Part shown: positions 11,742 through 59,628 of the stretch, in pieces
Layout of the letters: the number at the start of each line of letters is the position of its first letter
Position numbering within the stretch: position 1 is the first letter of the stretch
Assembly (NCBI GenBank): GCA_965203055.1
Contig: OZ241863.1
Location: forward strand, 544,001 to 608,000
DNA: 64,000 nt
From: Spirochaetia bacterium
GTDB taxonomy: Bacteria > Spirochaetota > Spirochaetia > SZUA-6 > Bin103
Direction: 5' to 3'
Notes under the pieces: model-generated
What the model was told of the DNA's origin: nothing
Databases searched by the model: none
The model's input: the letters and a program-made list of their open reading frames with translations, nothing else
Made by a program: the position numbers and the translations under genes

Positions 11742-11764
11742 ATCACTCCAACGTGCTCCCGTGG

Positions 11765-41628: not shown

Positions 41629-42747
41629 TTACGTGGTTGGTTTCAACCCGGTCCGTGATTCGTTCCTGAACCAGTCATAGGTTGGATAGTGAATGGGGTT
41701 TCGAGGGTCGTTTGCTGCGTAGATCAGCATGGCGCGCAGCTCCCGCATGGTCCGATCGACGCGTGTTCGAAATGGTTCGGTGCGGCGGAGAAGTTCCTGA
41801 TTCAAGGCTTCATCTTCCCGGACTTCCGTAAGGTCCGCAGATTCGCTTCCGCGATAGCGGGCGCTGGGATCGGTCCGTATCTTCAACTTCGTAATGCGCA
41901 GGTGAACGGAACCGGCGCCGTGTGGTTTGGCGCCTCCCAGTTTGTGGCGCAACGGGCCGCGCAGAGTCACGCCTGCTTGATCGCTGGCGCGGCCGACGGC
42001 TGCCGCACTCAGCTCGACGGTACTCTGTTCTTCGAGTACCAGACAGTAGACGAGCAGGTCGAGTTCCTCCTCCCGCAGGTTCTCGAAATCCACGGTGAAG
42101 CGAAAACGGGTGCCCGGCGGTGCGGGTGTTACCGTCGCCGTCTGTCTTATATTCGGGTGCGGCCGCGTGAGCCGGTCCGCCTCGACGCGGTGATGATAGA
42201 GCTTACGCCGGTTATTTCTCGGATAGAAAGACTGGTGGGACCGTTTGGGCTGACCGACGGTAACAGGGTAAGCCGGCCACTGGACTGGCGCGAATGGCTC
42301 GGCCAGTTCGGCGTCGCTGAAGCGAACCAGTCCGGCAAAGGCGTTGCTGCCATCCAGATAGCCGAACATCCTGGCGACGACGTCGAGGCTCGAGTCGCGT
42401 CGCGCCATAGCCAGTTGATGCTGCCGGTCGACGCTCGCCTCACGGAACGGTACGGCGGCATTGCCTATGATTTCAGCCAGGGATCGGATGGCGCCTTTGA
42501 GAGACGTGGCCGGGAGATATGGCTGAGGGCCGCCGCGCCGGCCGCCGGCCGCGTTGCGTACTATATGGCTTACGAACTGCCCCTTACCGTCGCCGACGAA
42601 CAACGGCGTCAACGCTTCGAGTTCGCACCAGACACGGCCGGCGAGGCCATCAAGATGATGGTGATAGTGCGGAACGTCGTGCTCCACAGCTCGATCGCTG
42701 ACGGTGACCCAACGGTACGGATTCCAGAACCGTTCGCGTTCAGGCAT
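41629..42747 (-). CDS. type III-D terminal Cas7-group RAMP
   Basis: FWNPYRWV, LEALTPLFVG, PATSLKGAIRS, RKLYHH, LGGAKPHGAGSV. Confidence 0.85.
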   Translation of the reverse strand: MPERERFWNPYRWVTVSDRAVEHDVPHYHHHLDGLAGRVWCELEALTPLFVGDGKGQFVSHIVRNAAGGRRGGPQPYLPATSLKGAIRSLAEIIGNAAVPFREASVDRQHQLAMARRDSSLDVVARMFGYLDGSNAFAGLVRFSDAELAEPFAPVQWPAYPVTVGQPKRSHQSFYPRNNRRKLYHHRVEADRLTRPHPNIRQTATVTPAPPGTRFRFTVDFENLREEELDLLVYCLVLEEQSTVELSAAAVGRASDQAGVTLRGPLRHKLGGAKPHGAGSVHLRITKLKIRTDPSARYRGSESADLTEVREDEALNQELLRRTEPFRTRVDRTMRELRAMLIYAANDPRNPIHYPTYDWFRNESRTGLKPTT

Positions 42748-43336
42748 CGGGACCTCCGTCCGCGGGCTCCAGGTCGCACAGGCGCAGGAAATGCGGCTCG
42801 CCTACGTCGTCGCGCCACTGCTCGATGACCACCTTGACGTGGCGGCTGCCGCCGGCAATCGGATAGCGGAAGCGATGTGGAATACGCAACTCGATCCATT
42901 CGCCGGGGCTGGCTTCGGTTTGCTGTCCCCACAGGTAGTAGCGCTCCCGCTTCGGCTGCAGCCTGTCCAGGATGTCGGAACAGTCCGCCAGTGCACCGTC
43001 CGTCCAATTGGCGTCGCCGAGAAAGACGGTGCGCCAGCAGGTTTCGCCAAGCGACGCAATGACGCGCCAGCGCAATTCGCCGTCGGGCGCGAACAGTCTC
43101 CCCGCCGTGGAGCGGGACAGGCAACCGCCCGTTCGTTCTGCGATCGGCTCGCGGCCGGCGCCGCACCAATGGAGATCGCGTTCGACGCCGCGCCACCAGT
43201 CGAACGCCCAGCCATCGGCCGCCTCCAGCCAGATGCGGCGCGAAGCCGTGCCGTTGGGCGGCGGATCGAGATTCGTAATGAGATCCAGAAATCCGTTGCG
43301 CGTCAGGTCAGCCGCTCTCAAGCAAGCCACGGTCAT
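42740..43336 (-). CDS. csx19: Csx19
   Basis: RLFAPDGELRWR, YYLWGQ, ELRIP..FRYP, RLCDLE; position in a III-D operon. Confidence 0.75.
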   Translation of the reverse strand: MTVACLRAADLTRNGFLDLITNLDPPPNGTASRRIWLEAADGWAFDWWRGVERDLHWCGAGREPIAERTGGCLSRSTAGRLFAPDGELRWRVIASLGETCWRTVFLGDANWTDGALADCSDILDRLQPKRERYYLWGQQTEASPGEWIELRIPHRFRYPIAGGSRHVKVVIEQWRDDVGEPHFLRLCDLEPADGGPDA

Positions 43337-44301
43337 GCTCCCGCCCGCTGTCGAGGTTGCCGGTTGGGCGCCTGCCCTCCAGGTCCTCCGTGCCAGCGCA
43401 GGAATGCTTCGAACGCCGGCGTCAGTGACTGCAATCGCACGGACCAGTCGTCCAGAACGTACTCCTGGCGCAGACCGCGCGGCGCCGCCGCCGGCAACGC
43501 AACCGGATCCGCCGGCGTCCAGTCGTGCAGGCGGTATGCCTCCCGCTCCCCGGTCGTCGCCAGTTGCCCGATGCCGGCCAACGACTGCGCGGGATGCAGA
43601 TAGGCCAGCCGGAAAGACGCCACTTTGGCGCGTACTCGCCCCATGCCTCGGCTGCGCCCCGATCCCACGGCGATCATCTCGTCCTTCAGATCGGCGAGCA
43701 GCAGGTTGAGCCCCGCCAGTTGCCAGAGCTCGAAGTTGGTCAGCCGAATGCGCGCCTCGAACTTGCCCCCGACCACCGCCTGCAGGTCGAACAACACGCC
43801 TTTCACGGTGCCTCCCGTGAAGCGGTCTATGCCCACGCCGTTGCGAGACTCGGGCGTTGGAGCGCAGCCCGGCAGCGGGTACGCATCGCCGATGCTGAAC
43901 CGGCCCGCGAACTTCAACGAACCGAACAGGCGGCACGCTGCGCACGAGTCGGCGTACCTGGCGGACGCAGGATCAGCTTCCTCGCCGCGGGAACGATACC
44001 CGCAGCCGTAAGACTCTTTCTCGTCATCGACCGGAATCGAGATGTCGTTTCGCTTCGGGTCGTAGTATGGCAGGCAGACGCTCCCCGGCTGCAGAGTGCG
44101 GGCGATGCGCTCGAAGTGACTGCGCAGGACGCCTTTGAGCGACGAACCCGGTAGATAATAGACGCTCTCGCCGTTCAGAAAGGTCACGACCGGCACCATG
44201 TCGGCGTCACCGAGCGTCGCGTAGCCGCTCTTGACCAGTACCGGATCCACGGGTTCGATCTCAATCGTCACGTCTGCTTGGCACAGCCACTTTCGCAGCA
44301 T
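43333..44301 (-). CDS. csm3: Cas7-group RAMP (Csm3-like)
   Basis: PGSSLKGVLRS, CAACRLFGS, GIDRFTG, GSGRSRGMG. Confidence 0.85.
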   Translation of the reverse strand: MLRKWLCQADVTIEIEPVDPVLVKSGYATLGDADMVPVVTFLNGESVYYLPGSSLKGVLRSHFERIARTLQPGSVCLPYYDPKRNDISIPVDDEKESYGCGYRSRGEEADPASARYADSCAACRLFGSLKFAGRFSIGDAYPLPGCAPTPESRNGVGIDRFTGGTVKGVLFDLQAVVGGKFEARIRLTNFELWQLAGLNLLLADLKDEMIAVGSGRSRGMGRVRAKVASFRLAYLHPAQSLAGIGQLATTGEREAYRLHDWTPADPVALPAAAPRGLRQEYVLDDWSVRLQSLTPAFEAFLRWHGGPGGQAPNRQPRQRAGA

Positions 44302-44302
44302 G

Positions 44303-45130
44303 TCACTCCTCCTCCGGCGCCAGTCGCAGGCGGCGCTGAATATGATCGCCAAAGAAGCCTTCCCAATCGCCCAGGTCACTTAGGCGGTCGTCCGACGTGG
44401 TCGACGTCAGAAACGTGACCCGCTGCTCCGGGTCACTCAGATCGACCCCCAGCAGCTTGATTTCTTCTTCCAGATGGAACCGCCCGAGGCCGCGGCTGGT
44501 AAAGCCGCCGATGCTGCTACCCGAGCGCCACTCAAACAGCGCGGCGCCGAGCAGGGCCAAGTCCCGGTCATGCGGATTGTCGAGATCGATGCGCAGCTTG
44601 AAGCGGCTGCCGGGAGGAACCACCTCGTAATCGTACTTGAGGCCATCGGCCGCGGTCTGGCTGTCGCGATCGATCACCACTCCGTCACGCACCTGCACCA
44701 CGTTGGCCCACTCCTTCAGCATGCCGTCGCTCACCCGCAGGCGGCCGGCCTGGACCGGCGACCCGAACAGCTTGCACACATCGCAAGTGTGATCGTCGAT
44801 CCACCGCAGCCGCCCTTCCAGATCCTGAGACGCCTTTCGATATTCGTCACGCGCCTTCTGGTAGTATTTGACGTCACTCGTACAGTTCACGCCGCTTGCC
44901 TGATGGTCCAGCAGACAGGCGCTCAGGCCCAAGGCGTGCGCCAGCGTCTCGCAGGTGCTCCGCAGCCTCCCCTTGAGCGAAGACCCGGGCAGGACGGGCT
45001 GGCCGGCAGGGTCCAACACGACGCCCAGGTCGCTGCTCTCTCCCTCTCTGCCCGATCCGATCCGCCACGCCGTCTCGAACACCAAGTAGGCGGTGACACT
45101 GATCTTACGGCGCAACGCGAAGTCTCTCAT
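44303..45130 (-). CDS. csm3: Cas7-group RAMP (Csm3/Csx7-like)
   Basis: RIGSG..SD, PGSSLKGRLRS, CDVCKLFGS, IGGFTSRGLG. Confidence 0.85.
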   Translation of the reverse strand: MRDFALRRKISVTAYLVFETAWRIGSGREGESSDLGVVLDPAGQPVLPGSSLKGRLRSTCETLAHALGLSACLLDHQASGVNCTSDVKYYQKARDEYRKASQDLEGRLRWIDDHTCDVCKLFGSPVQAGRLRVSDGMLKEWANVVQVRDGVVIDRDSQTAADGLKYDYEVVPPGSRFKLRIDLDNPHDRDLALLGAALFEWRSGSSIGGFTSRGLGRFHLEEEIKLLGVDLSDPEQRVTFLTSTTSDDRLSDLGDWEGFFGDHIQRRLRLAPEEE

Positions 45131-45551
45131 ATTCCTCGACCCCCAACCGGTACAAGGCGTGCGTACAGAAGCGTTCGAAAAACGCCGGGATGTGAGTCTG
45201 TTCCCACGCCTCCCGCCGCTTGCGTTGGCGGCGCCTGGTCTCCGTACGAAGTTCAGGCGGTGCGTGCTTGTCCCCTTCCACACGGACGGACCACCCGTTA
45301 CGCGAATCGCAGAGTCTTTCCACTAGTTGCCAGAATTGGACTTCTGACTGCTTGTTCTTTCGTTCTGCCCGAGTACGCTGACGTTCGGCGAAGTTCTTGA
45401 CTTGCTCCGGTTGCTGACGAGCAATCTGCCGCAGACCGTAGATCTGCGCTGTTTTCACGGGGAACTTTCGGATCTCGCCAAGCAGCGTATCGAGTTGCTG
45501 ACGAGCCTGGTCGCGGTAAACAGTATCGGACAGCAGATCGACTATTGTCAT
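45105..45551 (-). CDS. putative small subunit (Cas11-like) 2
   Basis: 148 aa, helical, TAQIYGLRQIA; in operon. Confidence 0.6.
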   Translation of the reverse strand: MTIVDLLSDTVYRDQARQQLDTLLGEIRKFPVKTAQIYGLRQIARQQPEQVKNFAERQRTRAERKNKQSEVQFWQLVERLCDSRNGWSVRVEGDKHAPPELRTETRRRQRKRREAWEQTHIPAFFERFCTHALYRLGVEEYERLRVAP

Positions 45552-45958
45552 GCGCCGGCCTCCATCCGCTGCAATGCGAGTCGGTACAGGTATTCGCCGA
45601 CGACAGCCTGTACCCAGCCGCGGGCAAGCCGGAGGCGCAAAGCCATTCGGTCATATTCGTCCCCCGTAAGGTCCTGACTGAGCTTGCGCAACCGCGCAAG
45701 CTGCTTCAGCACGTCGTTACCGAGCGCCATCCACTTCTTGTCTCCCTTGCCCATCTGGTTCTTGACGAAGTCCTCGATGTCGGCGAACCGGGTGGCGGAG
45801 CAGGCGATCTGCTGCAGGTTGCGTACCTGCGTGCTGATCTTCCCCTTGTCCGAGCCGAATTCGTCAAAGAATCGCCTGCCAAGAGAGGAGAACTTCTCGT
45901 GGTTCTCGTCAAGGTAGCAGTCAACCTTGCCGATCAGGTCGGCGTTCAAGACGTGCAC
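45548..45958 (-). CDS. putative small subunit (Cas11/Csm2-like) 1
   Basis: STQVRNLQQIA...FVKNQMGK..W; in operon. Confidence 0.65.
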   Translation of the reverse strand: MHVLNADLIGKVDCYLDENHEKFSSLGRRFFDEFGSDKGKISTQVRNLQQIACSATRFADIEDFVKNQMGKGDKKWMALGNDVLKQLARLRKLSQDLTGDEYDRMALRLRLARGWVQAVVGEYLYRLALQRMEAGA

Positions 45959-47184
45959 GGCTGCGCCTCCTGCATGGAAAATCGACGGTGGAACTCATCG
46001 GACACCGACACTACGCCGAAACCCTCGTTGCGCCGCAAGCCGATGCCGTCCTCGACCAGCGCCGCGAGCCGCGGGATAAACGCGTCGCGTTGGCTTGGCG
46101 CGCCCTCGAATCGATAGACGTAGGCCGCGCCGCGCGCGACCGCCCACTCGTCCTGACGCGGCAGACCGTGAGCCGCGTTCCAGCCGCGGAGGCGCTCGTG
46201 CCGGGTGACCGCGGCGATCCAGCGTACCGTACCGCCAGAATCGAGGAGCCGGACCGCCCGATTCCGTAGCGGGAACGCAGTCGAGACAGGGGACATGTGC
46301 GGCAGCCATCCAACCATGTCCGCCGGGTCCAGGGAATAACGCAGAAACCGATCCACCATCACGGCGCCGGTCGGAAGTGAAATCGCGAAGAAGAAGCCGT
46401 CCGCCAAGTTCGTAATGGATAGCTTCCGCAGAAAGTTGCTCAGGTCGGCGTTCCATCGAACCCACCGATCGGCCTGCGAGCGCAGGTTCTCCGGCGCCGC
46501 CGGCTCTCCGAGCGTCACGTGCACGTCTCCGTAGCCGCGCGTGCGGGCATGGCCGACGGAAATGCGGCCCGCTTCATCCTGCAGGAGCCGCCGCAACGTG
46601 TCGAGCGCGTCGTCATCAGCCCGGAGCCAACCATGGAGATCGGCATCGTTTCCGGAGGGCGCCAGCGCTTCCAGGGTGTAGAAGATGGAGTCCGCGGCGG
46701 TGCCGGTCCGGCGGTCGATGCCCACGTGAGAGGCGACCTGCAGAGTGCTCGCCTTCTTACAAACGCGGCCGGACTCGTCGCGCCAGAAACCATCCTCCGC
46801 CTTCAAGTCCGCATCGCACTGCGCGCACTGCTGCCAGGCTTCCGCGCCGCCGGCCATCCGGCCCGCCGAGTAGTGTTGCGCGACGCGGAACCAGAGCAGG
46901 TCCACCAGGGCATGCTCAAGCCGTTCGTGCTTGCAGGAAGCCGCGGTCAGCGGGAATACCTGCGGAGCGGGGTCCAGCGGTCCGAAGCGGCAGGCGGCAT
47001 CGTTAAGAAACACCCGTTCGAAGGTCTCGTCAGTCCGCCCATGGCGCTGCAGGTAGAGCGATGCGAAGGCCCCGCGCACGAGAGTGCCCGCCACCGACCG
47101 GGCACTCCCAGAGCGTTCGGACTGCCGATCGCGCCTGATCGCCAACGGGGCAAGCAACCGCGCGGTGACAGAGACGATTTTCAT
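45946..47184 (-). CDS. csx10: Csx10 (Cas5/Cas7-like RAMP)
   Basis: GTLVRGA, GIDRRTG, GHARTRGYG, RGWN..GLPR, GIGLRRNEGFG. Confidence 0.85.
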   Translation of the reverse strand: MKIVSVTARLLAPLAIRRDRQSERSGSARSVAGTLVRGAFASLYLQRHGRTDETFERVFLNDAACRFGPLDPAPQVFPLTAASCKHERLEHALVDLLWFRVAQHYSAGRMAGGAEAWQQCAQCDADLKAEDGFWRDESGRVCKKASTLQVASHVGIDRRTGTAADSIFYTLEALAPSGNDADLHGWLRADDDALDTLRRLLQDEAGRISVGHARTRGYGDVHVTLGEPAAPENLRSQADRWVRWNADLSNFLRKLSITNLADGFFFAISLPTGAVMVDRFLRYSLDPADMVGWLPHMSPVSTAFPLRNRAVRLLDSGGTVRWIAAVTRHERLRGWNAAHGLPRQDEWAVARGAAYVYRFEGAPSQRDAFIPRLAALVEDGIGLRRNEGFGVVSVSDEFHRRFSMQEAQPCTS

Positions 47185-47924
47185 GCCATGTCTCCGCGCA
47201 GCTCGTCGATCCACTTGGCCCATTCGCCTCTCCATCTCGCGAAGCTGGTGAGGGAATACTCCGGGGTCTCGGTGGCGCCGTTCCAACGCAGTGACTCGAT
47301 ACGTACCTCGCACCTACCCAAACCGGTGCTCTTGTCGCCGCCCAGAGTATCCAGCGACAGCAGCCCAGCCACCAGAAGCGCATACTCGTAAGGGAACTCA
47401 TCATCGTCTTCTTGCGTCAGAACACCGCCGGGATGCCGGGCGCGGATGGCGCCTTGCAATTCGACATCCGCTTCGACCAGTTCCGTGGTAAACAAGTGTC
47501 GTTCCATGACCGTACCGGTGACACGATCGATGGCGGTGCGCGCGGCCACGGCCGGCGTTCCCTTCTCCGCCTTGCTTGGCACGGCGTTGGTCATGAACAC
47601 GCACTCACCTTGGTAGCGGCTGCCGAACAGTCGGTCGATCAGCAGCTTGGACTTGGCCAGTGGCCGGAAATGTTCCACGAGGCTCCGGTCGCCTTCTCCG
47701 GCGCCTGCATGCGGATCGACCGCTTCGAGGCCGAGCGCCAAGGCAAGCCGCTCGCACTGATGCCGCAGCACGCCCTTGACTTGCGAGCCCGGCACGAAAG
47801 GCGCTCCCGCTCCGCCGAGTCGCTGCTGCAAACGATCCACTGCGGCCGACCCGTAGCCGCTGCCGACGTGCCAGCGTCCGTTCCATGCGATGCGGTAACC
47901 GATGTCCAAGCGCTGCGGTTTCAA
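47181..47924 (-). CDS. csm3: Csm3 (Cas7) RAMP
   Basis: HVGSG...D, PGSQVKGVLR, IDRVTG, LGGDKSTGLG. Confidence 0.88.
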   Translation of the reverse strand: MKPQRLDIGYRIAWNGRWHVGSGYGSAAVDRLQQRLGGAGAPFVPGSQVKGVLRHQCERLALALGLEAVDPHAGAGEGDRSLVEHFRPLAKSKLLIDRLFGSRYQGECVFMTNAVPSKAEKGTPAVAARTAIDRVTGTVMERHLFTTELVEADVELQGAIRARHPGGVLTQEDDDEFPYEYALLVAGLLSLDTLGGDKSTGLGRCEVRIESLRWNGATETPEYSLTSFARWRGEWAKWIDELRGDMA

Positions 47925-49585
47925 CGTCCGCTCTCCTCCTGAGTATCCGGAAACAGATCATAGGCATCTACGATGTCGGCCACGCACAGCGACCGTCGGT
48001 TGCCGGACTGAAACCACGGAAAGCAGACCTCATGGCCGGCGGGCTGCAGACGTTTCACGGCGTTCCACAGGGCACGGCGTTGCGACGGTTCGGCGCCATG
48101 CCGGGCGCGGGCGAAGATTTCCCGGATGCGGCGTTCCGCATGCTGCTCCCGGGCGGTGAGGGCAGCGTCCAGGAGCTCGTGCAGCTTGCTGCGCGGAAAG
48201 CTGGCCCGGCGTAACTCCCGGACCGCGGCGCGCACCTCCTGCAACTTCAATCGCGTCAGTGGTCGCAGTGTTCTCGGCGCTTTGTCGGTGTGATAGGTAC
48301 CCCTTCTTACGTCCTGGAGATCGAGGCTGTTGGCTCCGGCTACGACGTGAAAATCGATGCGGGCGGTGTCACGCTTCCCGTTCATGGCGTTTGGGCTGCG
48401 CTTGGCATTCTGCAGCAAGGCCGTGGCCAGGTCCAAAGCCAGGTAGAACGGATACGTGCTCCGGACGATGGCAACGCCGCAGGAAATCGTGAAGCCGTTG
48501 TCGCCCCGGTGCTCCCGGAAGAAGCGCCGGGCGCCGTCATCCGGCACGGCTTCGATTTTTGCGCGAGTGAGCCGCTCGAACTCCGCGGTGACGTGGCATG
48601 CGAAGTCGAGGGCGCGGTCGGCCGGCAGGGCGACCAGCAGATCATCGCCGCCAAGCAGCAGGACGTCGGCCGGCAGCGGAGGCGGCTGGCGGCCCCGATC
48701 GATGGTGTCTCGGATACGCTTGACATCGGTGCTCATAACCGCATCGAGGCCGGAGAAACACGCCTCCCGGATGCTCTCGTCGACGACCTTGCTGAAGTGC
48801 CGGCACGTCTCCGAGCTGTCCAGCGCCTGCACGACCTTGCCCATCGCGTTCCCGTCGGCGTACACCACACCGACGTAGTTGCGCCATGACGACCGGTCGC
48901 CGATAGCCGTCATGTCCGCGCACCGCAGAGCATGCCATTCCTCCTGCGGAGGCCATGGGCCGGCGCTTGCCAGATGTTCCATCCACTTGGACCAGACCGC
49001 CCCGGCGCGCGATTCCCGCCCTTCGCACGCCTTCCGATGGCTCGCCTCGGACAACATGGCGGCCCCTTCCGCGCCATGGTCCGTGAAGCGCGCCGCCGGC
49101 AGATGCGAGGCGGACCGACACTCCATGATCGCGGGCAGGGTGGAGGCGCCGTAACGACCGCCGCCAAACCCCCGGCGGCAGCGCAACTGGAAGTGGGCCC
49201 GGTCCACCGCGCAGCGGTACCCGCCGTCCGGCAGTGGCGCGATGCCGTAGGCCGGCCGCACCTCGCCCCCGGTCCGGTCACGGACGTAGCGCACCATGCG
49301 CCGGCAGGCGGACTCCACCGTGTCGGCGTCGCACTGCCGCACGATGAACTGCGCCGAACCGCCATTGGCATAGATCGTCTCCAGGGCCGCGGTTTCGAGG
49401 TGCTCATCGAGCACCCGCTCCATTTCGTGTCGATTCAACCGATCCAGCCAGGCGCTGGCCCCGCGCACCTCATTCAATCGATCCGTGCCGAACACGTAAC
49501 TCTTGATCGACGGGACATCGATCTGAACCAGGAATGTCCCGGTCTTTCCGGGATCACCGGCTTGGTTCACGGCTTCTCTCGACAT
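47921..49585 (-). CDS. cas10: Cas10 with intact Palm GGDD and no N-terminal HD domain
   Basis: IDVPSIKSYVF, YANGG, YADGNAMG, LLGGDDLL, ISCGVAI; start uncertain (49585 or 49627). Confidence 0.9.
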   Translation of the reverse strand: MSREAVNQAGDPGKTGTFLVQIDVPSIKSYVFGTDRLNEVRGASAWLDRLNRHEMERVLDEHLETAALETIYANGGSAQFIVRQCDADTVESACRRMVRYVRDRTGGEVRPAYGIAPLPDGGYRCAVDRAHFQLRCRRGFGGGRYGASTLPAIMECRSASHLPAARFTDHGAEGAAMLSEASHRKACEGRESRAGAVWSKWMEHLASAGPWPPQEEWHALRCADMTAIGDRSSWRNYVGVVYADGNAMGKVVQALDSSETCRHFSKVVDESIREACFSGLDAVMSTDVKRIRDTIDRGRQPPPLPADVLLLGGDDLLVALPADRALDFACHVTAEFERLTRAKIEAVPDDGARRFFREHRGDNGFTISCGVAIVRSTYPFYLALDLATALLQNAKRSPNAMNGKRDTARIDFHVVAGANSLDLQDVRRGTYHTDKAPRTLRPLTRLKLQEVRAAVRELRRASFPRSKLHELLDAALTAREQHAERRIREIFARARHGAEPSQRRALWNAVKRLQPAGHEVCFPWFQSGNRRSLCVADIVDAYDLFPDTQEESGR

Positions 49586-49669
49586 AGCATGGCAGTTCGA
49601 TCCAGCGACTCGATCATACCGCCACACTCCACAAGGTGCAACGCCGTCATCTGCGTGATCTTCCCTGCG

Positions 49670-50896
49670 TCAGTCAGCAAGGCAGATTCTGAAAGCATCG
49701 TCCAGGGCGTCCCGTAGCCGACCGGGATCATCGAGTATTCCGCGGGACCTCCGTTGCGGACGGGTCGTGTGCGCAAGGGAGTTGCGGATGTGTTGGAGAT
49801 TCAGGTGGGCGAGCTGCCGCTCGCCGGCGCAGTTGGTTGTCAGCTCTATCGTGGCCGCCTTTCGAAGTTCTTCATCATATCGATATTGGTCGACAGGCCT
49901 TCCGTTACTCTGATTCTGACACCACCGGTTGATGCAGGCTTCCCAGCCCAACATCGCCGCGCGCACGAAGTCGTGGCGGTTCAGGTATTGGTAAGCGAGC
50001 TCCCGCTGCCGTTGCCACGGCTGGCCTTGTTTCACCCACCGCAGCCGCTTCTCCAACTCCTCCTTGAACAGACCGGACGCTCCACCGAGCGGTGCGGCGC
50101 GCTCCGACAGATAGGACAGGAACGTGCGCACTCTGTTCTCGGCGGCAGGCACGTTGAGAATGCGTTCGTAGAACGACGCGTTCGTCAGGCACCTGGCCTT
50201 ATCATACGGCACGCCGTCTGCGACGAGCAGCGGTTCGAACATCCCCAGGTCCCCGGTCGCGTCATACCGTTCCAGCGCCGCCACCCAACGCCTGACGCGG
50301 ACCAGTCCATCCAGCTTGAGCACCGGCGTGATTCCTTCCCGCGTCATGTCCACAGCGCCGTACCACAGGTCCTTGACCTCGAGACTACGGACGCGCTCCA
50401 GCATGAAGGCCGACAGGAAACCCACCATGGCGAGATGGCGGAACCCGTGCGTAAGGTCGAAACTCACGGTGCCGTCCGGTACCACCTTCGGATCGGCGAT
50501 GGTGGCAAGGATGCCGTACTGCTCACCAAGAGACTCCCCGTACGGTATGAGACGCGGTAGTACGTCGCAACGAGTCCGCTCTTTCATGAGCGGCGTTACG
50601 CGGTCAAGGAGGTCCTGGTCGACGGCAGACTTGGGCTCGGCCTCCAGCAGCTCGATACGCGCTTCCTCGTACTCGTCGCCCTCCTGCGTCGCCACGTGCT
50701 CGACCAATGCGCCCCACTGACTGCCGCGCGTGCCAAGTATCACGATCGCATCCGGCTGCAGATGCTCTGCCAACGCCAGTCCGAAGAACTCGGTTTCCTT
50801 CGTGGTTCCGTCGGGAAACAGATAGTTGGCCTTGCGATATGGCGTTTCCTTTGTATCCCTGCCTCGCCCAAGGAACGTTACCACCGTGTGCTTCAT
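49670..50896 (-). CDS. csx1: Csx1/TM1812-type CARF-HEPN ribonuclease
   Basis: TFLGRG, LGTRGSQW, FDLTHGFRH CARF motif; HEPN RNSLAH. Confidence 0.88.
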   Translation of the reverse strand: MKHTVVTFLGRGRDTKETPYRKANYLFPDGTTKETEFFGLALAEHLQPDAIVILGTRGSQWGALVEHVATQEGDEYEEARIELLEAEPKSAVDQDLLDRVTPLMKERTRCDVLPRLIPYGESLGEQYGILATIADPKVVPDGTVSFDLTHGFRHLAMVGFLSAFMLERVRSLEVKDLWYGAVDMTREGITPVLKLDGLVRVRRWVAALERYDATGDLGMFEPLLVADGVPYDKARCLTNASFYERILNVPAAENRVRTFLSYLSERAAPLGGASGLFKEELEKRLRWVKQGQPWQRQRELAYQYLNRHDFVRAAMLGWEACINRWCQNQSNGRPVDQYRYDEELRKAATIELTTNCAGERQLAHLNLQHIRNSLAHTTRPQRRSRGILDDPGRLRDALDDAFRICLAD

Positions 50897-50964: not shown

Positions 50965-50980
50965 AGCAATTTCCGTGCCA
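50965..50980 (-). promoter_or_regulatory. sigma54 -24/-12 promoter of the csx1-cas10 operon
   Basis: TGGCACG-GAAA-TTGCT on the minus strand, ~70 bp before the csx1 ATG. Confidence 0.85.
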
Positions 50981-51002
50981 TCGTCGAGAGTCTACCGGCG
51001 AA

Positions 51003-51047
51003 GCCTGCACAGAACAGCGGAGTCGCCACTCGGTAGGTCGCTTTCAT
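51003..51047 (-). pseudogene. 5' stub resembling cmr1
   Basis: MKATYRVATPLFCAG. Confidence 0.5.
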
Positions 51048-51261
51048 GGCCGCGCGCTCGCCACCGCCGGATCAGCGTGCCCGACCTTTACCATAGGCCG
51101 ACTCGCCCTGGATTGCAACGGGTGTCGCAATAAATCTTCCATTCATGTAACGTATGTTACGATCACGGCCAACCTGTTCCGGCCACTGAGCAATGGCACG
51201 GCTGCAGGCTCTTCATGCGGTGCCGCCGGCGTGGCTGCGGAATTGGGAAAGGAGGACGACG

Positions 51262-52761
51262 ATGCGTAGCATCCTGATCAGTTGGATCGGCAATACGGAC
51301 CTGAAAGCGTCGCAGGGAGGCGCGGAGGGTATCGGACCGGTGGCCAAGGCCGTGGAGGACGGTACGTACGACGACGCCTTTCTGCTCACCACGTATGGCG
51401 ACGAGGCGGAACGCTACCGAGAGTGGCTCGAAGGGCGCGCGAGCGGGATCAGTCTCCACCTGCTGCACGAGCGGCTCACCAGCCCCACGGCCTTCGGCGA
51501 GGTCTACCCAGCCGCGGTCCGCGCCTGCGAACGGGCGCGCGCGGCCGCCGGTCCGGGCGCCGCGCTCACGTTCCATCTGAGCCCCGGCACGCCGGCCATG
51601 TCCGCGGTGTGGATCATCCTGGCCAAGACGCGCTTCGAGGCAACGATCATCGAGTCGTCGAAAGAGCACGGCGTCCGGGAGGTCTCCGTCCCCTTCGACA
51701 TCTCGGCTGAGTTTCTCGCCGATCTACTGCGGCAGCCGGACCGGGATCTGGAACGTCTGAGCGCCGGGCTGCCGCCGCAGGCGCCCGCCTTCGACGAGAT
51801 CGTCCATCGCAGCCCGGAGATGCGGCGCGTCATTTTGCTCGCCCGGCGGGTCGCGCTGCACTCGGTGCCGGTTCTGATCGAGGGAGAGTCCGGCACGGGC
51901 AAGGAGCTGATGGCGCGGGCCATCCACCACTCGAGCCCACGACGGGAGGAACGGTTCATCTCGGTCAACTGCGGCGCAATACCTGAGAATCTGGTTGAGT
52001 CGGAGTTGTTCGGCCATGAGAAGGGCGCGTTCACCGGTGCCGTCAAGATGCGAAAGGGGCACTTCGAAGCCGCGAGTGGCGGAACGCTATTTTTGGATGA
52101 GATCGGGGAGCTGCCGCTTTCGGCGCAGACGAAGCTGTTGCGCGTCCTGCAGGAAGGGACGGTCCAGCGTGTCGGCAGCAGCGACACGCGTTCAGTAGAC
52201 GTGCGCGTCATCGCGGCGACCAACCGTACCCTGACGGAGGAGGTCGCACGCGGCCGGTTCCGCGAAGACCTCTTCTATCGTCTGGCGGTGGCGGTGCTCA
52301 AGCTGCCGCCGCTCCGCGAGCGCGGCGGCGACGTCGGGCCCATGACGGATCATCTTCTCGTCCAAATCAACCGCGAGTTGGCGAAAGCTCTTGGTTATCG
52401 GCGCAAAAGCCTTTCCGCTTCGGCAAGGAATCTTCTTACTCGGCACCCGTGGCCGGGCAACGTACGCGAGTTGCGCAACACGCTGATGCGCGCCGCGCTC
52501 TGGTCGGCGGGCGACATCATCACGGGGGACGACCTGCGCGGTGCGCTGCTATCGGCGCTCGGCGACCGCAAGCGGGACGTGTGGGACCGTCCCTTGGGCG
52601 GCGGTTTCAGCATCGAGGCGCTGTTGGCGGAGATCAGGCGCCATTATCTGAGCCGCGCGATGGAGAAGGCCGGCGACAACAAGACCAGGGCAGCCAAACT
52701 ACTGGGACTCCGCAGCCATCAGACGCTCAGCAACTGGCTGAAACAGCACGCGGCGGAATGA
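51262..52761 (+). CDS. sigma54 enhancer-binding protein with N-terminal CARF (RtcR-like) domain
   Basis: AGGAGG RBS; ILISWIGNTD...FHLSPGTPAM; GESGTGKE, GAFTGA, FLDEIGE, WPGNVREL; Fis-type HTH NKTRAAKLLG. Confidence 0.88.
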   Translation: MRSILISWIGNTDLKASQGGAEGIGPVAKAVEDGTYDDAFLLTTYGDEAERYREWLEGRASGISLHLLHERLTSPTAFGEVYPAAVRACERARAAAGPGAALTFHLSPGTPAMSAVWIILAKTRFEATIIESSKEHGVREVSVPFDISAEFLADLLRQPDRDLERLSAGLPPQAPAFDEIVHRSPEMRRVILLARRVALHSVPVLIEGESGTGKELMARAIHHSSPRREERFISVNCGAIPENLVESELFGHEKGAFTGAVKMRKGHFEAASGGTLFLDEIGELPLSAQTKLLRVLQEGTVQRVGSSDTRSVDVRVIAATNRTLTEEVARGRFREDLFYRLAVAVLKLPPLRERGGDVGPMTDHLLVQINRELAKALGYRRKSLSASARNLLTRHPWPGNVRELRNTLMRAALWSAGDIITGDDLRGALLSALGDRKRDVWDRPLGGGFSIEALLAEIRRHYLSRAMEKAGDNKTRAAKLLGLRSHQTLSNWLKQHAAE

Positions 52762-52777
52762 TGGCACGATTATTGCT
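52762..52777 (+). promoter_or_regulatory. sigma54 -24/-12 promoter of the csb2-cas1-cas2 operon
   Basis: TGGCACG-ATTA-TTGCT immediately after the regulator stop. Confidence 0.85.
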
Positions 52778-52833: not shown

Positions 52834-52914
52834 ATGGCGCAGGACGTAGAGAAACTACTGACGACGACTAGCACCCACGCCAACCCGCCTCGCGGCCCGC
52901 GGAGACGCGCGTGA
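52834..52914 (+). CDS. 26-aa leader ORF or gene stub
   Basis: GGAGG RBS; MAQDVEKLLTTTSTHANPPRGPRRRA; TGA overlaps the next GTG. Confidence 0.4.
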   Translation: MAQDVEKLLTTTSTHANPPRGPRRRA

Positions 52915-53642
52915 CCGGCGGGCCGGCGCGCGCGGCGCGGATGCCGGATTGCGTGCGCTTTCGTCTCACCGGCGACCGGCTCCCGACTGCGCGCCTGGGG
53001 CATCAGGTCGCCGAACGCGCCCGCCGCGCCGCGCTCGGCCGGGCACGCATGATGTACGGACCGGACGGCATACCCGCGGCGCTGTCGGGCCACGGCGCCC
53101 AGGCCGGCGCGCCGGCCCTGGAGCACCGGCACGCCTTCTGGCTGCCGGAGGATGCCGACGGCGACGGGCGCATCGACCATCTCACCGTGCACGCCCGGGC
53201 GATGGACGGGACGGCGCTGGCGGCGCTGTTGGCCGCGGACATCGCCGTCCATGCACGACGCGAGCACTGGCGCGCAGCCTCGGACTGGATCGGCCGCCAT
53301 GACGAGCCGGACATCCCCACGGCCCTGCTGGAGGTCGCGGTCGAATGGGTCTCCGTCGCTCCCTACTACCGGCCGTGGCACGCGAAGCGCGGCTTCTCGC
53401 AGGACGACATGATCCGCCGCGAATGCGCCGCGCGCGGTCTGCCTCCGGTGACGGAGGTGGAGTTGATCGGCTCCGGCGCCGCCCCGCCGCGCTGGCGCTG
53501 GCGCGAAAGCGCGCCGAAGGGGAACGGCCGGGGCACGGCGTGGCGGCTGGTCTTCGCCGCGCCCGTGCGCGGGCCGCTGGCGTTCGGCTACGGCTGTCAC
53601 TTCGGCCTCGGCCTGTTCGCCCCGGAGTCGGGCGATGCGTGA
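52911..53642 (+). CDS. csb2: Csb2 C-terminal (Cas6-like) half, likely crRNA-processing enzyme
   Basis: LSGH, HRHAFWLPED, IDHLTV, W.SVAPY, GPLAFGYGCHFGLGLF G-loop. Confidence 0.8.
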   Translation: MTGGPARAARMPDCVRFRLTGDRLPTARLGHQVAERARRAALGRARMMYGPDGIPAALSGHGAQAGAPALEHRHAFWLPEDADGDGRIDHLTVHARAMDGTALAALLAADIAVHARREHWRAASDWIGRHDEPDIPTALLEVAVEWVSVAPYYRPWHAKRGFSQDDMIRRECAARGLPPVTEVELIGSGAAPPRWRWRESAPKGNGRGTAWRLVFAAPVRGPLAFGYGCHFGLGLFAPESGDA

Positions 53643-54678
53643 CGCCGACCGGCGCGACCGCGCCGCGGCCATCCGCCATCCGGTCTACGTCAACAACCAG
53701 GGCGCGCGCATCGGCCTGACCGGTCACACCCTCGAGGTGGCGATGCTGGACAAGCGCCGGCGCCGGCACCTGCGCCTGGACGAAATGTCCGAAATGACCG
53801 TCATGGGCAACATCCAGGTAACCACGCCTGCGCTGCAGGAACTGATGCGGCGCGGCATCCCGGTGTGCTGGACGACCTCCTCCGGCTGGTTCCTGGGCGC
53901 CACTTCCGGCTTCGGCCACGGCGATGGCGCGTTGCGCGCGGAACAGCACGCCGCCGCCGCCGACCCCGCGCGCCGCGTCGCCTTTGCCCGCACTTGGGTG
54001 GCCGCCAAGATCCGGAACTGCCGCACCCTCCTGCGCCGCAACGGGAGCGGCCGCGAGGCGAAGATCGCAGTGCGTCAACTGACGGAACTCGTGGAAAACG
54101 CGGAACGCACCGCCGATCTGGACAAGCTGCGCGGCTACGAGGGCGCCGCGGCCGCCGCCTACTTCAGGACCTTCCCGGCCATGCTGCGCGGGCGGGCGGC
54201 CTGGGCCGCCGAACGGTACCGGGGCCGCAACCGCCGGCCGCCGCGCGATCCGGTCAACGCCGCGCTCTCCTTCGCCTACGCCGTCCAGACCCGCTCCTGG
54301 AGCGTCGCCGTCACCGCCGCCGGACTCGATCTGTTCACCGGGTTCCTGCACGGCTTCCGGCATGGTCGTCCCGCGTTGGCGCTCGACCTGATGGAACCGG
54401 CGCGGCCGCGGATCGCGGATTCCGCGGTCCTGCGCATATTCAATTCGGGGATGCTGAAAGCCGGCTACATGGAACAGGAGGGCAACGCAGTCCTGCTCGG
54501 CGAGCAGGGCCGGCGCGTCCTGCTGGACGCACTGGAAGACCGGCTGGACGAGTCGAGCCTCCACGACCGCCTGGGGCGGGCCATCATCTACCGCGACCTG
54601 CCGTCCATCGAAGCCGCCCGCCTCGCGCGCGCTCTGCGCCGCAACGACGAGCCGCCGGCGCAGATGAGCTGGCGGTAG
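53635..54678 (+). CDS. cas1: Cas1 (no Cas4 or RT fusion)
   Basis: GNIQVTTPAL, LRGYEGAAAAAYF, RNRRPPRDPVNAALSFAY, GRPALALDLMEP. Confidence 0.93.
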   Translation: MRDADRRDRAAAIRHPVYVNNQGARIGLTGHTLEVAMLDKRRRRHLRLDEMSEMTVMGNIQVTTPALQELMRRGIPVCWTTSSGWFLGATSGFGHGDGALRAEQHAAAADPARRVAFARTWVAAKIRNCRTLLRRNGSGREAKIAVRQLTELVENAERTADLDKLRGYEGAAAAAYFRTFPAMLRGRAAWAAERYRGRNRRPPRDPVNAALSFAYAVQTRSWSVAVTAAGLDLFTGFLHGFRHGRPALALDLMEPARPRIADSAVLRIFNSGMLKAGYMEQEGNAVLLGEQGRRVLLDALEDRLDESSLHDRLGRAIIYRDLPSIEAARLARALRRNDEPPAQMSWR

Positions 54679-54693: not shown

Positions 54694-54969
54694 ATGCCGC
54701 CTGCCGGAAGGGACTACCTGGTAGCCTACGACGTTTCGTCCCCCAAGCGGTGGCGCCGGGTCTACCGGCTGCTGCACGGTTACGGCGACTGGGTTCAGCT
54801 TTCCGTGTTCCGGTGCCGGCTGGACCCCCGACGCCGCCGCCGGATGGAGCAGGAGCTGCGCGCCGTGATGGAGACCGCCGAAGACCGGCTGCTCATCGCG
54901 CGGCTGGAGGAGGACGGACAAACGGCCGCCGACCGGGCGAAGTCGGATCGACGGGCATTGATCGTGTAA
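54694..54969 (+). CDS. cas2: Cas2
   Basis: YLVAYDVS..RWRRV, GYGDWVQLSVF. Confidence 0.93.
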   Translation: MPPAGRDYLVAYDVSSPKRWRRVYRLLHGYGDWVQLSVFRCRLDPRRRRRMEQELRAVMETAEDRLLIARLEEDGQTAADRAKSDRRALIV

Positions 54970-55008
54970 CCGCCGCGCGGCGTGCTATGCTGGCCGGCGT
55001 CTGGAGGC

Positions 55009-55609
55009 GTGGTCGAATGCCTCGGGTACTACTTCCGCAACCACCCCGACGTGTACGTGTCCGGCAGCCTGCTGATCTACTACGAGGAAGGGACGCGGGC
55101 GAGGGTGGCGCCGGACGTGTTCGTGGTGTTCGGCGCGGGCAAAGAAGAACGCTCGTCGTACCTGCTGTGGAAGGAGGCCAAGGCGCCCGACTTCGTGCTG
55201 GAGATCGCGTCGCCGGGGACGTGGCGGGACGATCAGACCTGGAAGCGGGAGTTGTACCGCCGGCTGGGGGTGGGTGAGTACTGGCAGTACGATCCGACGC
55301 GGAACTACCTGCAGCCGCCGCTGCAGGGGTTGGAGTTGGAGGTTCTACGATCCGCAGACCGGAGAGGAGCTGCGGAACTTGGCGGAGGCCGAAGACGGAC
55401 GCCGGGAGGCGGAGGCCCGCGTGGAGCAGGAAGCGGCCGCCCGCCGCCGGGAGGCAGCCGCCCGCCAGGCCGCAGAAGCCCGCGTCCATCAGGAGGCGGC
55501 CGCCCGCCAGGCCGCAGAGACCAGCGCCCACCAGGAAGCGGCTGCCCGCCAAGCGGCCGAAGCGCGTTTGGCCGAACTCGAGGCATTGTTACGCCGCCGA
55601 TCCGACTGA
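55009..55609 (+). pseudogene. Uma2-family endonuclease remnant
   Basis: VAPDVFVVFG, APDFVLEIASP, EYWQYDP; frameshift at ~55343 to RFYDPQTGE plus EAAARQAAE repeats; 5' end missing. Confidence 0.75.
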
Positions 55610-55639
55610 CGCTACCTACGTTTTTGGAAGTGCCCGCCC

Positions 55640-55897
55640 TGTGGTGTTGCCAAATAACCGGATGTGGCATAGGGTAGCCGTCAAGCAGGCGTCTTTGACA
55701 GAGCGACCGAGCCGGAGGGGTGTGCTGCTGATCCTTCCGGATTCCGCTCGCGTCGCACGAAAGCGTTGCCGCCAAGGGAGATATGGCAGATAATCCTGAG
55801 TGAACGTCCAGTTGAGGGGTCCGATTGCTCGTCATGGCTGCCTCCGCTCGCGGGACTTGAGATTTGTGCTTGCAGATCATGGGGTTGCGGGACGGCA
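55640..55897 (+). promoter_or_regulatory. CRISPR leader
   Basis: Non-coding stretch between the cas2/Uma2 region and the first intact repeat; degenerate repeats lie at the far end. Confidence 0.6.
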
Positions 55898-57497
55898 GTC
55901 ACCAGCCGCGCGAAACGCGCGGCCCTATTGAAACACACGCTTGGCCTTGGTCAGGTTGACCCGGATGAATGATGTCACCAGCCGCGCGAAACGCGCGGCC
56001 CTATTGAAACCAGGCGGAACGCGATGCAATCGTCATCCCCGCGTGGAACGGTCACCAGCCGCGCGAAACGCGCGGCCCTATTGAAACTCATGGCGTCGGG
56101 GAGAGTGGCGTCCGCCCGCCAGGAAAGTCACCAGCCGCGCGAAACGCGCGGCCCTATTGAAACTTGATCGCCTTGTCGATTGCTTCTACGACATCATCCT
56201 GGTCACCAGCCGCGCGAAACGCGCGGCCCTATTGAAACCTCCTTGACCTGCTCATCCGTGATCAACCCCATGTTGTCACCAGCCGCGCGAAACGCGCGGC
56301 CCTATTGAAACTTTAGAGACAGAAAAAGAACCTGAATAAACTACATACCGTCACCAGCCGCGCGAAACGCGCGGCCCTATTGAAACACGAATCTTGTTCG
56401 CCTTATAGGCCCGCTGAGTGGAAGTCACCAGCCGCGCGAAACGCGCGGCCCTATTGAAACACTGCGAATGGGAGACGATGTCTTCATCGACCTGATCGGG
56501 TCACCAGCCGCGCGAAACGCGCGGCCCTATTGAAACGCTTCGGCGATCTTGCCGTTGCCGAGAAACGTCTTGGCGGTCACCAGCCGCGCGAAACGCGCGG
56601 CCCTATTGAAACTTGTACTCTGCAAGCTGATCTAAGATCTCTGTTCGACGTCACCAGCCGCGCGAAACGCGCGGCCCTATTGAAACCCGACAGGAACGTT
56701 CGTCTCATTGAACTTGGCCGCCGAGTCACCAGCCGCGCGAAACGCGCGGCCCTATTGAAACGTGGGGACGCCGATCCACACTATGGCGCGGCAGGCGCGG
56801 GTCACCAGCCGCGCGAAACGCGCGGCCCTATTGAAACCTCCTTGAACGCTTTCGGTATACGTATGGGCAATACGAGTCACCAGCCGCGCGAAACGCGCGG
56901 CCCTATTGAAACGGTATCGGAAGTTTCGCCGCCCCCGGTGGGAGGTCACCAGCCGCGCGAAACGCGCGGCTCTATTGAACTCCTTCGGCGCCGCAAGGAC
57001 TCCGAACGGATTCTTGAGGTCACCAGCCGCGCGAAACGCGCGGCCCTATTGAAACCTGGGCGCGGTCACGATCACGTGCTCGCCGCTATGCGGTCACCAG
57101 CCGCGCGAAACGCGCGGCTCTATTGAAACTCCTTCGGCGCCGCAAGGACTCCGAACGGATTCTTGAGGTCACCAGCCGTGCGAAACGCGCGGCCCTATTG
57201 AAACCTGGGCGCGGTCACGATCACGTGCTCGCCGCTATGCGGTCACCAGCCGCGCGAAACGCGCGGCTCTATTGAAACTCCTTCGGCGCCGCAAGGACTC
57301 CGAACGGATTCTTGAGGTCACTAGCCGCGCGAAACGCGCGGCCCTATTGAAACCTGGGCGCGGTCACGATCACGTGCTCGCCGTTATGCGGTCACCAGCC
57401 GCGCGAAACGCGCGGCTCTATTGAAACGCCGCCCGCGCCGCGCACACGCACGCCCACCCGGCCGCCTGTCACCAGCCGCGCGAAACGCGCGGCCCTA
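55898..57497 (+). CRISPR. CRISPR array: 22 repeats (last truncated) and 21 spacers of 32-40 bp
   Basis: 37-bp repeat GTCACCAGCCGCGCGAAACGCGCGGCCCTATTGAAAC; GCCGCGCG-AAA-CGCGCGGC hairpin; ATTGAAAC handle. Confidence 0.98.
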
Positions 57498-58579: not shown

Positions 58580-59628
58580 GTCGCGCGGGTGCGCGATCTG
58601 CCAATCCTGGACCAGTCCACCATCCTGGTGCTGGCGCGGCGCCGCTTGGCCTGCCCACAGTGCGGTCCGAAACTCGAACACCTGAACTGGCTGGCTCCCT
58701 ATGCCCGGGTCACCAACCGGCTGGCCGAGAGCGTAGCGCAGATGTGCGCAGTGCTGCCGATCAAACACGTAGCGCAGCACTACGAGCTGCGCTGGGACGC
58801 GGTGAAGGAACTGGATAAGGCGTACTTGCAGCGCACCCTCGGACCGGTGCAGTTGCAGGGAGTCACCCAACTGGTGATGGACGAATTCGCGCTGCGCCGC
58901 GGGCATCGCTACGCCACAGTCATCGTCGATGCCCTCACCAAGCGCGTGCTGTGGGTTGGTAAAGGTCGGCGCCGGGAAGACATACGGCCATTCTTCCAAC
59001 TCTTGGGCAGGGCCGGCTGTGAAGCTATCGAGGCGGTGGCGATGGATATGAACGGCGCCTACGAGCCGGAGGTGCGCCAGAACTGTCCGCAGGCCAGGAT
59101 CGTGTACGACTTGTTCCACGTCGTGGCCAAGTACGGGCGCGAGGTGATCGACCGGGTGCGCGTGGACGAAGCCAACCGGCTGCGAGCTGACCGGCCAGCG
59201 CGAGCGGTGGTGAAAGGGTCACGGTGGCTGCTGCTGCGCAATCGGCAGAACATCCGCAAGCGCGAGGATCGGGTCAAGCTGCGGGAACTGCTGCAAGCCA
59301 ACGAGTCGATCGCTACGGTCTACCTCCTGCGCGACGATCTGAAGCATCTGTGGGAGTATCGCCGTGCGGGGAATGCGCAACGGTTCTGGGAGCAATGGTA
59401 CGAGCGGGCGCAGGCCAGCGGCATCGCGCCGCTGATCAAGTTTGCGACGGCGATGAAGAAGCGACTGCACGGGATCCTGGCGCACTGCCGGTGGCCGCTG
59501 CACACCAGTCTGATCGAAGGCATGAATAACAAGATCAAGGTGATCAAACGAATGGCCTATGGGCTCCGCGACAACGACTACTTCTTCCTCAAGATCAGGG
59601 CCTCTTTCCCGGAGATGCCGGATGAACC
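58580..59628 (+). mobile_element. 5'-truncated ISL3-family element
   Basis: VRDLPIL, MDEFALRRGHRYAT, MDM, YDLFHVV, EGMNNKIKVIKR; right end ...GCCGGATGAACC. Confidence 0.88.

Follow-up and report, generated by a model that had tools for sequence, protein, structure and literature searches.

RtcR-like proteins, in which a CARF sensor is followed by an NtrC-type ATPase and a helix-turn-helix (HTH) domain, have been tied to restriction-modification (R-M) systems, and the passage on them in Makarova et al. (2014; PMC4012209) lists the family as not typically found near cas genes. According to the part of Bell et al. (2024; PMC11090510) that deals with RtcR homologues, these head CoCoNuT and type I R-M superoperons, and sensing of RNA fragments ending in a cyclic phosphate was proposed. 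Csa3 is named in the relevant passage of a 2022 review as the only characterised non-nuclease CARF effector (PMC9704534), and a promoter dependent on sigma-54 inside the type I-E cas operon of Salmonella, upstream of cas1, is described in the corresponding part of Samuels et al. (2013; PMC3844500). The latter was the only published link between sigma-54 and CRISPR found by literature search; Makarova et al. 2020 (NAR 48:8828) lay outside that search and may list cas-linked RtcR_PspF members. Experimental work on defence-linked RtcR_PspF2 members was not found in the literature search, and the words 'sigma', 'RtcR' and 'NtrC' do not occur in the 2025 CRISPR classification (PMC12669027). Here a CRISPR-Cas locus of a Spirochaetia bacterium (GenBank assembly GCA_965203055.1; 4.56 Mb, 68.8 % G+C, 95.9 % complete) is described, in which the gene for an activator of this kind lies between two predicted sigma-54 promoters that face a type III-D interference operon and an adaptation operon. 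The DNA analysed, referred to as the window, is the stretch of 64,000 nucleotides at positions 544,001 to 608,000 of contig OZ241863.1 (forward strand).

The two motifs, TGGCACGGAAATTGCT on the minus strand (50965..50980) and TGGCACGATTATTGCT on the plus strand (52762..52777), match the -24/-12 consensus exactly. The gap from GG to GC has the canonical 10 bases in both, and all 12 specified bases of TGGCAC-N5-TTGCW are matched at both sites; transcription starts are predicted near 50955 for the leftward promoter, P(csx1), and near 52787 for the rightward promoter, P(cas6/cas1). An earlier reading of the window, here called the original prediction, had reported two exact motifs with exact spacing at these places, and this was confirmed: the exact pattern TGGCACGNNNNTTGCT occurs twice in the window, whereas 100 dinucleotide shuffles averaged 0.02 matches and none of them reached two. 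With one mismatch tolerated the window test is weak (0.70 matches expected; two reached in 15/100 shuffles). The genome-wide check of background frequency that had been suggested also came out in favour of the motifs, with four exact matches to TGGCACGNNNNTTGCW in the whole genome (4,557,819 bases), two of them the window pair, against one to three in six third-order Markov simulations of the genome (1, 1, 1, 3, 1, 1).

Flanked by csx1 (ATG at 50896) and the activator gene, the minus motif stands 68 nt ahead of the csx1 start. The plus motif begins one base past the TGA of the activator gene (52759-52761); the next ATG (52834) follows 56 nt on, and the GTG at 52911 of a cas6-like gene 133 nt on. 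Both motifs are thus intergenic and 55-70 bp ahead of the first start codon, as had been stated, with the qualification that the ATG at 52834 opens only a 26-codon open reading frame (ORF). Profile searches likewise placed type III-D genes to the left and cas6-like, cas1 and cas2 genes to the right, so that the motifs face the interference and adaptation operons as claimed. As far as sequence can be computed upon, both predicted promoters have every property of real sigma-54 promoters. The promoter properties and the orientation given in the original prediction were therefore borne out; the gene that is the key to the locus, the activator gene between the motifs, was not named there.

This gene (51262..52761, plus strand) encodes a predicted sigma-54 enhancer-binding protein of 499 aa, in which an AAA+ sigma-54 interaction domain of 170 residues sits between a CARF-like sensor (residues 1 to ~170) and a putative C-terminal HTH domain. 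The PADLOC profile RtcR_PspF2--CARF_AAA_HTH (PDLC01995) was matched with 5e-194 and 643.9 bits, residues 3-497 being aligned with model positions 2-479 of 481, and Pfam PF00158 (Sigma54_activat) with 1.8e-72. Walker A (GESGTGKE), GAFTGA (GHEKGAFTGA) and Walker B (LFLDEIG) are all visible in the translation. For a Fis-type HTH domain, PF02954 gave 19.6 bits, under the cut-off of 22, and the PADLOC profile aligns through the C-terminal end. Judged by these matches, the activator is an intact member of the RtcR_PspF2 family.

The N-terminal 170 residues were matched by no Pfam family; alone, they match the CARF4, CARF1 and Csx1/Csm6 profiles of PADLOC, whose CARF family names reportedly stem from Makarova et al. 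2020. An AlphaFold (AF2) model of the sensor was built from 23 homologues (pLDDT 85.4, pTM 0.77) and submitted to Foldseek, which returned 36 matches with E <= 0.001, CARF-domain proteins throughout among the matches listed. The best structural matches were CARF domains that bind cyclic oligoadenylate (cOA), namely Csm6 with a cA6 analogue (E 1e-6, TMq 0.66), the Sis0811 ring nuclease, TtCsm6, Can2, Card1 and Cad1; by sequence search against solved structures nothing was found (best E 1.2). As modelled, the sensor is a CARF fold. The motifs WIG..DL and H..GTP.M are invariant across 23 sensor sequences spanning cargo types, and the window sensor motif reads LSPGTPAM, without K or R.

The genome carries rpoN (PF04552, 170.3 bits; open frame of 472 aa; C1:111074-111565) and only four strong sigma-54 activators, the window activator included. 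Other good sigma-54 sites precede glnA-, amtB-, urea/amino-acid-binding-protein- and hsp20-like genes (judged from their first residues). With four activators and sites of this kind, the regulon appears small and ordinary.

The sensor domain has thousands of relatives, with 60-65 % identity across phyla. Three samples of activator loci were compared: 15 loci from species-representative genomes, 13 from genomes of the window's own bacterial family and 80 from metagenome contigs. Motif scoring held GG and GC constant and demanded 13.5 or more of 15 points, and in the metagenome loci a range of -9 to +16 nt of the activator stop was used. A sigma-54 motif stands right behind the activator stop in 8/15 of the distant genome loci (one further locus ends too early), in 11/13 of the relatives' loci, where L033 and L044 are the misses, and in 43/65 of the examinable metagenome loci; at equal threshold, 16 other sites were found in 674 kb of metagenome loci. 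In these samples, a predicted sigma-54 promoter abutting the activator stop is a hallmark of the RtcR_PspF2 family. A divergent second motif 110-200 bp upstream of the activator was found in 4/15 genome loci and 9/70 metagenome loci, and weaker divergent variants were recognised by eye in three more genome loci. The window therefore retains the standard two-promoter cassette of the family.

What stands behind these promoters varies. In the distant genomes the type I restriction gene HsdR follows the promoter in 6/15 loci; on the divergent side ARPP-1 and DUF2130 genes are frequent, and other neighbours are SIR2, large helicases and kinase-phosphatase-VWA sets. Sister activators in the relatives' genomes (L034-L041, L043) head a gene for a protein of ~1,250 aa (N6-methyltransferase plus AAA_16) and one for an AAA_16 protein of ~535 aa. 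In PADLOC the former had only generic methyltransferase matches and the latter none; the methyltransferase-AAA pair is possibly a defence system not described so far.

Cas genes beside the activator were found only in L002, L032 and L033 among the 28 genome loci (tblastn with twelve window Cas proteins), none being detected by tblastn in the 14 genome loci L003-L016, and 0/80 metagenome loci had a cas gene or array beside the activator (18 Cas queries and an array search). A maximum-likelihood tree of the sensor domain unites the four CRISPR-linked proteins in a single clade (support 95/91), which is nested among methyltransferase-linked proteins of the same bacterial family. In the window, the type III-D genes lie behind a predicted sigma-54 promoter, the activator's own promoter is present as a remnant only, and a predicted sigma-54 promoter after the activator stop is followed by the small ORF and the cas6-like, cas1 and cas2 genes. 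L033, an orthologous locus, also has a type III-D operon behind a predicted sigma-54 promoter, with Cas proteins 70-78 % identical to those of the window and the divergent TGGCACGGTACTTGCT kept ahead of its csx1; a sigma-54 promoter precedes its activator, and cas6-like, cas1 and cas2 come right after the activator without a separate promoter. In L002, type III-B genes without a detectable sigma-54 motif are combined with a sigma-54 promoter and a DUF1232 ORF ahead of the activator and with a sigma-54 promoter after its stop, followed by cas6-like, cas1 and cas2; the post-stop motif of the window is conserved there. L032, in which interference genes are not adjacent, has a sigma-54 promoter and an L002-like small ORF ahead of the activator and, after its stop, a sigma-54 promoter followed by a reverse transcriptase gene, cas6-like, cas1 and cas2. 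Predicted sigma-54 control thus extends to the adaptation and processing genes in 4/4 loci and to the interference genes in 2/4 (window and L033). The stand-alone reverse transcriptase of L032 (RVT_1, 2.8e-32; 7199-8386, minus strand of the locus) is placed between the sigma-54 promoter and the cas6-like/cas1/cas2 genes, so that RNA-derived spacer uptake would also fall under the switch.

A conserved block of 40-45 bp lies ahead of the activator gene (51120..51162, plus strand; TCGCAA..AAATCTTCCA..GTAACGTATGTTACG) and contains the inverted repeat GTAAC-N4-GTTAC at 51147-51160. It is common to 4/4 CRISPR-linked loci in an alignment read by eye, and a related block, CGTAA-N26-TTACG, stands ahead of the methyltransferase-linked paralogues. 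In L033 two divergent sigma-54 promoters ~130 bp apart have the block halfway between them, as would be expected of an activator binding site. The block is a candidate activator binding site (upstream activating sequence) and/or sigma-70-type promoter of the activator gene. Between block and gene, at 51195..51261 (plus strand), an autoregulatory unit is represented by a remnant, in which TGGCACGG, lacking a -12 element, is joined to the final codons of a DUF1232 gene. L002 (9623-10008) and L032 have an intact sigma-54 promoter and a small ORF at the equivalent place, the small ORF of L002 (98 aa) being a DUF1232 gene (PF06803, 1.6e-13). The window unit, which keeps both ends only, looks like the product of a deletion.

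The leftward operon comprises ten closely packed genes on the minus strand, most junctions overlapping by a few bases; the effector part extends over 41629..49627. First behind the promoter is csx1 (49670..50896), which codes for a CARF-HEPN ancillary RNase (TIGR02221 2.9e-43 plus a DxTHG domain; PADLOC CARF2--CARF_HEPN 1.5e-123; Rx4H motif RNSLAH). It is followed by cas10 (47921-49627; short, GGDD present; palm2 9.2e-14, PADLOC Cas10 5.6e-65), the only Cas10 gene of the genome, and by genes for a RAMP (47181-47924), Csx10 (about 45946-47184; 141.8 bits, best match yet under the cut-off) and a Csm2-like small subunit (45548-45958). A 148 aa ORF without assigned family (45105-45551) precedes two csx7 genes (44303 to about 45130 and 43333 to about 44301; Csx7 129.3 bits, over the cut-off), csx19 (42740 to about 43330; 24.7 bits, best match yet under the cut-off) and a TIGR03986 RAMP gene (41629-42747). 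The RAMP, small subunit and TIGR03986 genes were assigned by profile searches, and start codons within the long effector ORFs were chosen by reading of the translations. By its profile matches the operon is a type III-D interference operon. A PF09820 'predicted AAA-ATPase' gene (39139-40392) and a 291 aa ORF without family match (40708-41583) lie at its far end and face it.

On the plus strand, the 26-codon ORF (52834..52914; MAQDVEKL...RGPRRRA) has a strong ribosome-binding site, GGAGGAAAG, and ends in a stop that overlaps with the GTG of the cas6-like gene (GTGA). Both its beginning and its end are kept in L002 (about 11690-11790), where it is preceded by an additional, inserted small ORF rich in glycine. 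The 26-codon ORF could serve as a leader peptide or a coupling device. The cas6-like gene (52911-53642) resembles the C-terminal half of Csb2/Cas5-6g (TIGR02165 4.2e-18; PADLOC Cas56g 2.5e-43, model positions 221-448 of 449) and is followed by cas1 (53635-54678; Cas1 2.3e-79) and cas2 (54694-54969; Cas2 5.6e-18). Between cas2 and the CRISPR leader, and counted with the rightward operon, lies a gene for a putative endonuclease of the Uma2 family (54982..55677; PF05685 5.6e-17), in whose 3' part 2.7 copies of a 42-bp tandem repeat were noted (55450-55563). The leader contains a predicted sigma-70-like promoter (55766..55794, TTGCCG-17-GATAAT; one found against 0.1 expected), a consensus match only. 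The array (55898..57427) has 21 repeats of 37 nt ending in ATTGAAAC and was read on the plus strand because variant repeats stand at its far end.

Just past this degenerate array end is a gene for an ISL3-family transposase (58589-59854), and one is found at the same place in L002 (16019-17269). Further downstream of the CRISPR locus are a CotH-kinase-like gene (59860-60936) and, on the minus strand, a gene for an Eco57I/MmeI-like methyltransferase of 820 aa (60799-63261); these two neighbours are consistent with a defence island. Transposase-type genes of the YhgA-like family (PF04754) are multicopy, with one in the window (62957-64000) and others in the genome at C1 about 815326, 819380 and 2316197. 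At least three YhgA-like copies elsewhere in the genome have the GG-N10-GC-like sequence TGGCACCGCCGCTGCW 53-64 nt ahead of the start, which may be a feature carried by the repeat and not a promoter.

Sigma-54 holoenzyme cannot open DNA unaided, and the N-terminal domain of RtcR keeps the ATPase in check, its loss making RtcR constitutive. Both promoters should therefore stay silent until the CARF sensor frees the ATPase; the proposal that the locus is off by default is plausible, as it follows from textbook sigma-54 biology. Promoter activity, the DNA target and the ligand of the activator, and the off state are inferred, and the following course of events is proposed. Sigma-54 RNA polymerase would wait as a closed complex at each promoter, and on receipt of a signal by the CARF domain the AAA+ ring would remodel the closed complex. 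Transcription would then run to the left through csx1-cas10-csx10-csx7-csx19 (type III-D interference) and to the right through the small ORF, cas6-like, cas1 and cas2, probably on into the array. The activator would probably bind the block at 51120-51162, ~170 bp upstream of the leftward promoter, and the rightward promoter would be reached by looping or from another site. The signal would most likely be the ancestral one of the family, for example RNA ends with a 2',3'-cyclic phosphate as proposed for RtcR, Cas10-made cOA being less likely. An innate sensor would thereby license the adaptive system.

Rather than being always on, the immune system of the window probably needs a signal to become active. 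That the motifs are working sigma-54 promoters of a self-contained cassette with an RtcR_PspF2 activator between them, responding most likely to a generic cue of infection or RNA damage, is given a probability of about 0.7. A search for Cas10 gave no Cas10-palm match in 4/5 related genomes that have a methyltransferase-linked paralogue (94-95 % complete), and 0/5 distant genomes had one above the cut-off. A generic cue is favoured over cOA because the invariant sensor residues are shared with restriction-driving members and most sampled genomes carrying such members show no Cas10 above threshold. Such a cue would need no pre-existing CRISPR complex, and on this reading most of the paradox raised by the original prediction, that of how basal surveillance is maintained in a locus that may be off by default, is removed; the predicted sigma-70-like promoter in the leader could also keep some precursor of CRISPR RNA (crRNA) around.

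Several points weigh against a cassette controlled in this way. The block at 51120-51162 also fits a sigma-70 promoter for the activator gene, and its palindrome GTAAC-N4-GTTAC, counted with one mismatch tolerated, occurs once in the window against 0.32 expected, a count that is not significant by itself (29/100 shuffles). For the rightward promoter, no such palindrome was found anywhere near 52762, and visual inspection of the activator gene towards its 3' end gave nothing convincing. A relaxed scan of the type III-B operon of L002 gave no sigma-54 motif above 12 of 15 on its strand, so that sigma-54 control of the interference genes is not fixed in the clade. Two genomes, G010 and G011, each carry a CRISPR-linked and a methyltransferase-linked paralogue; their ligands may have diverged, and the argument from a shared signal is weakened accordingly. 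A weak sigma-70-like match (50987-50959) overlaps the leftward sigma-54 motif; as a real promoter it was rejected and treated as a probable chance match because it is absent from L033 in the alignment read by eye. With the match in the CRISPR leader, it makes some constitutive expression possible. None of the 21 sequencing runs listed for this DNA is an RNA run.

The strongest competing explanation is positive feedback, in which the CARF domain would bind cOA made by Cas10, or the 2',3'-cyclic-phosphate RNA ends left by the cOA-activated HEPN RNase Csx1, and the first recognition event of basal complexes would amplify interference and acquisition. In its favour, the sensor model is structurally most like CARF domains with bound cOA, and the locus has a Cas10 that keeps GGDD and, as first leftward gene, a CARF-HEPN Csx1, so that the locus is taken to signal with cOA. 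Csx1 would yield exactly the cyclic-phosphate RNA ends proposed as the ligand of RtcR, the single clade of CRISPR-linked activators (95/91) allows a clade-specific change of ligand, and in L033, L002 and L032 the activator stands behind its own sigma-54 promoter, as a feedback loop would be wired. Against this, the sensor motifs are identical in members that drive restriction or methyltransferase genes, whose sampled genomes mostly show no Cas10. According to the passage on RtcR-type CARF domains in PMC4012209, the basic residue after strand 4 is mostly absent from them, and LSPGTPAM of the window likewise lacks K and R. Moreover, the activator's own sigma-54 promoter is broken in the window, and basal complexes, the source of which is unproven, would be required. 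Positive feedback is accordingly considered unlikely, though it is the rival to be taken most seriously. The same tentative standing applies to its broader form, a dormant type III system woken by a CARF-gated sigma-54 motor that reads the system's own alarm chemistry (cOA or cyclic-phosphate ends made by Csx1), where a single recognition event would boost effectors, crRNA processing and spacer uptake. If true, this circuit would amount to self-amplifying 'priming' for type III systems and to a third way in which cOA signalling reaches gene expression.

Much less probable is that the cassette is inherited baggage, captured together with the cas genes, with expression mainly from sigma-70 promoters and an activator that is seldom or never active. 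Sigma-70-like matches in the CRISPR leader and over the leftward promoter would suit such a history, as would the deletion in the unit upstream of the activator, the mobile elements around the locus (ISL3 transposase) and the loss of the motif in L044, a family member of the same genus. Yet both motifs are perfect despite the divergence of the intergenic regions from those of L002 and L033, the activator frame and its catalytic motifs are intact, rpoN and further sigma-54 promoters are present, and L033, as read by eye, does not keep the sigma-70-like match that overlaps the leftward motif. That the two motifs are chance matches is hardly credible: 15/100 window shuffles give two when one mismatch is tolerated, but the matches are exact, a pair of which was reached in 0/100 shuffles, they flank a sigma-54 activator gene, and most of 93 examinable family loci have a motif at the equivalent place, a conservation that already refutes chance.

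Little is understood of how cost and danger are kept low in CRISPR systems before they are needed, and leakage is expensive in type III systems that have collateral RNases. A sigma-54 promoter combines near-zero basal transcription with a strong induced state. With the effector operon and the acquisition and processing operon both placed behind such promoters, and a ligand-sensing activator between them, immunity would depend on the sensing of a signal. Since the same portable switch heads restriction and other defence operons in many phyla, its ligand, once found, would account for how a large share of defence islands is regulated. As a test case the window is compact, with one activator, two promoters and a defined cargo, and it lends itself to a direct test of the link to cOA or RNA-end signalling.

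Compared with known systems, the locus shares with the Salmonella cas1 promoter the link between sigma-54 and a CRISPR adaptation gene; as described in the part of that report concerned with it, however, the Salmonella site is lone and intragenic, was found with a promiscuous activator, has no dedicated activator and leaves the other cas genes uncontrolled. With Csa3, an archaeal CARF-wHTH protein that binds cA4, the activator has in common a CARF sensor and, as proposed, DNA binding in a CRISPR locus, with control of cas genes including those for adaptation. Csa3 lacks an AAA+ motor and works independently of sigma-54, whereas the window protein is an ATP-driven enhancer-binding protein for an all-or-none type of promoter; a Csa3-type regulator was rejected, as the AAA+ domain between sensor and putative HTH excludes a direct CARF-wHTH fusion. 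RtcR, through which sigma-54 promoter activation turns on the rtcBA RNA-repair operon in E. coli and Salmonella, is similar in its CARF-like N terminus, NtrC-type AAA+ domain with GAFTGA and dedicated adjacent sigma-54 promoter, and its HTH domain has a putative counterpart in the activator. The activator reached 342.8 bits with NCBIfam NF038308 against a cut-off of 650, its N-terminal domain had no Pfam match to the RtcR N-terminal domain at E <= 0.01, and RtcB (PF01139) had no match in the whole genome (95.9 % complete), the neighbours of the activator being cas genes and not rtcBA. An assignment as RtcR proper was therefore discarded, the score being under the equivalog cut-off and adjacent rtcBA genes lacking. 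The closest likeness is to the defence-linked RtcR-like activators, with which the locus shares the full-length profile match, the three-domain plan (its HTH being putative), the motif abutting the stop, the divergent promoter seen in a minority of them, and an immune cargo. It differs from them in what this cargo is: a type III-D operon together with an adaptation and crRNA-processing operon and an array, instead of type I R-M genes, the methyltransferase-AAA pair or other defence genes. Regulators of this kind have already been described by comparative genomics; the distinctive point of the locus lies in its cargo, the two arms of a type III CRISPR-Cas system.

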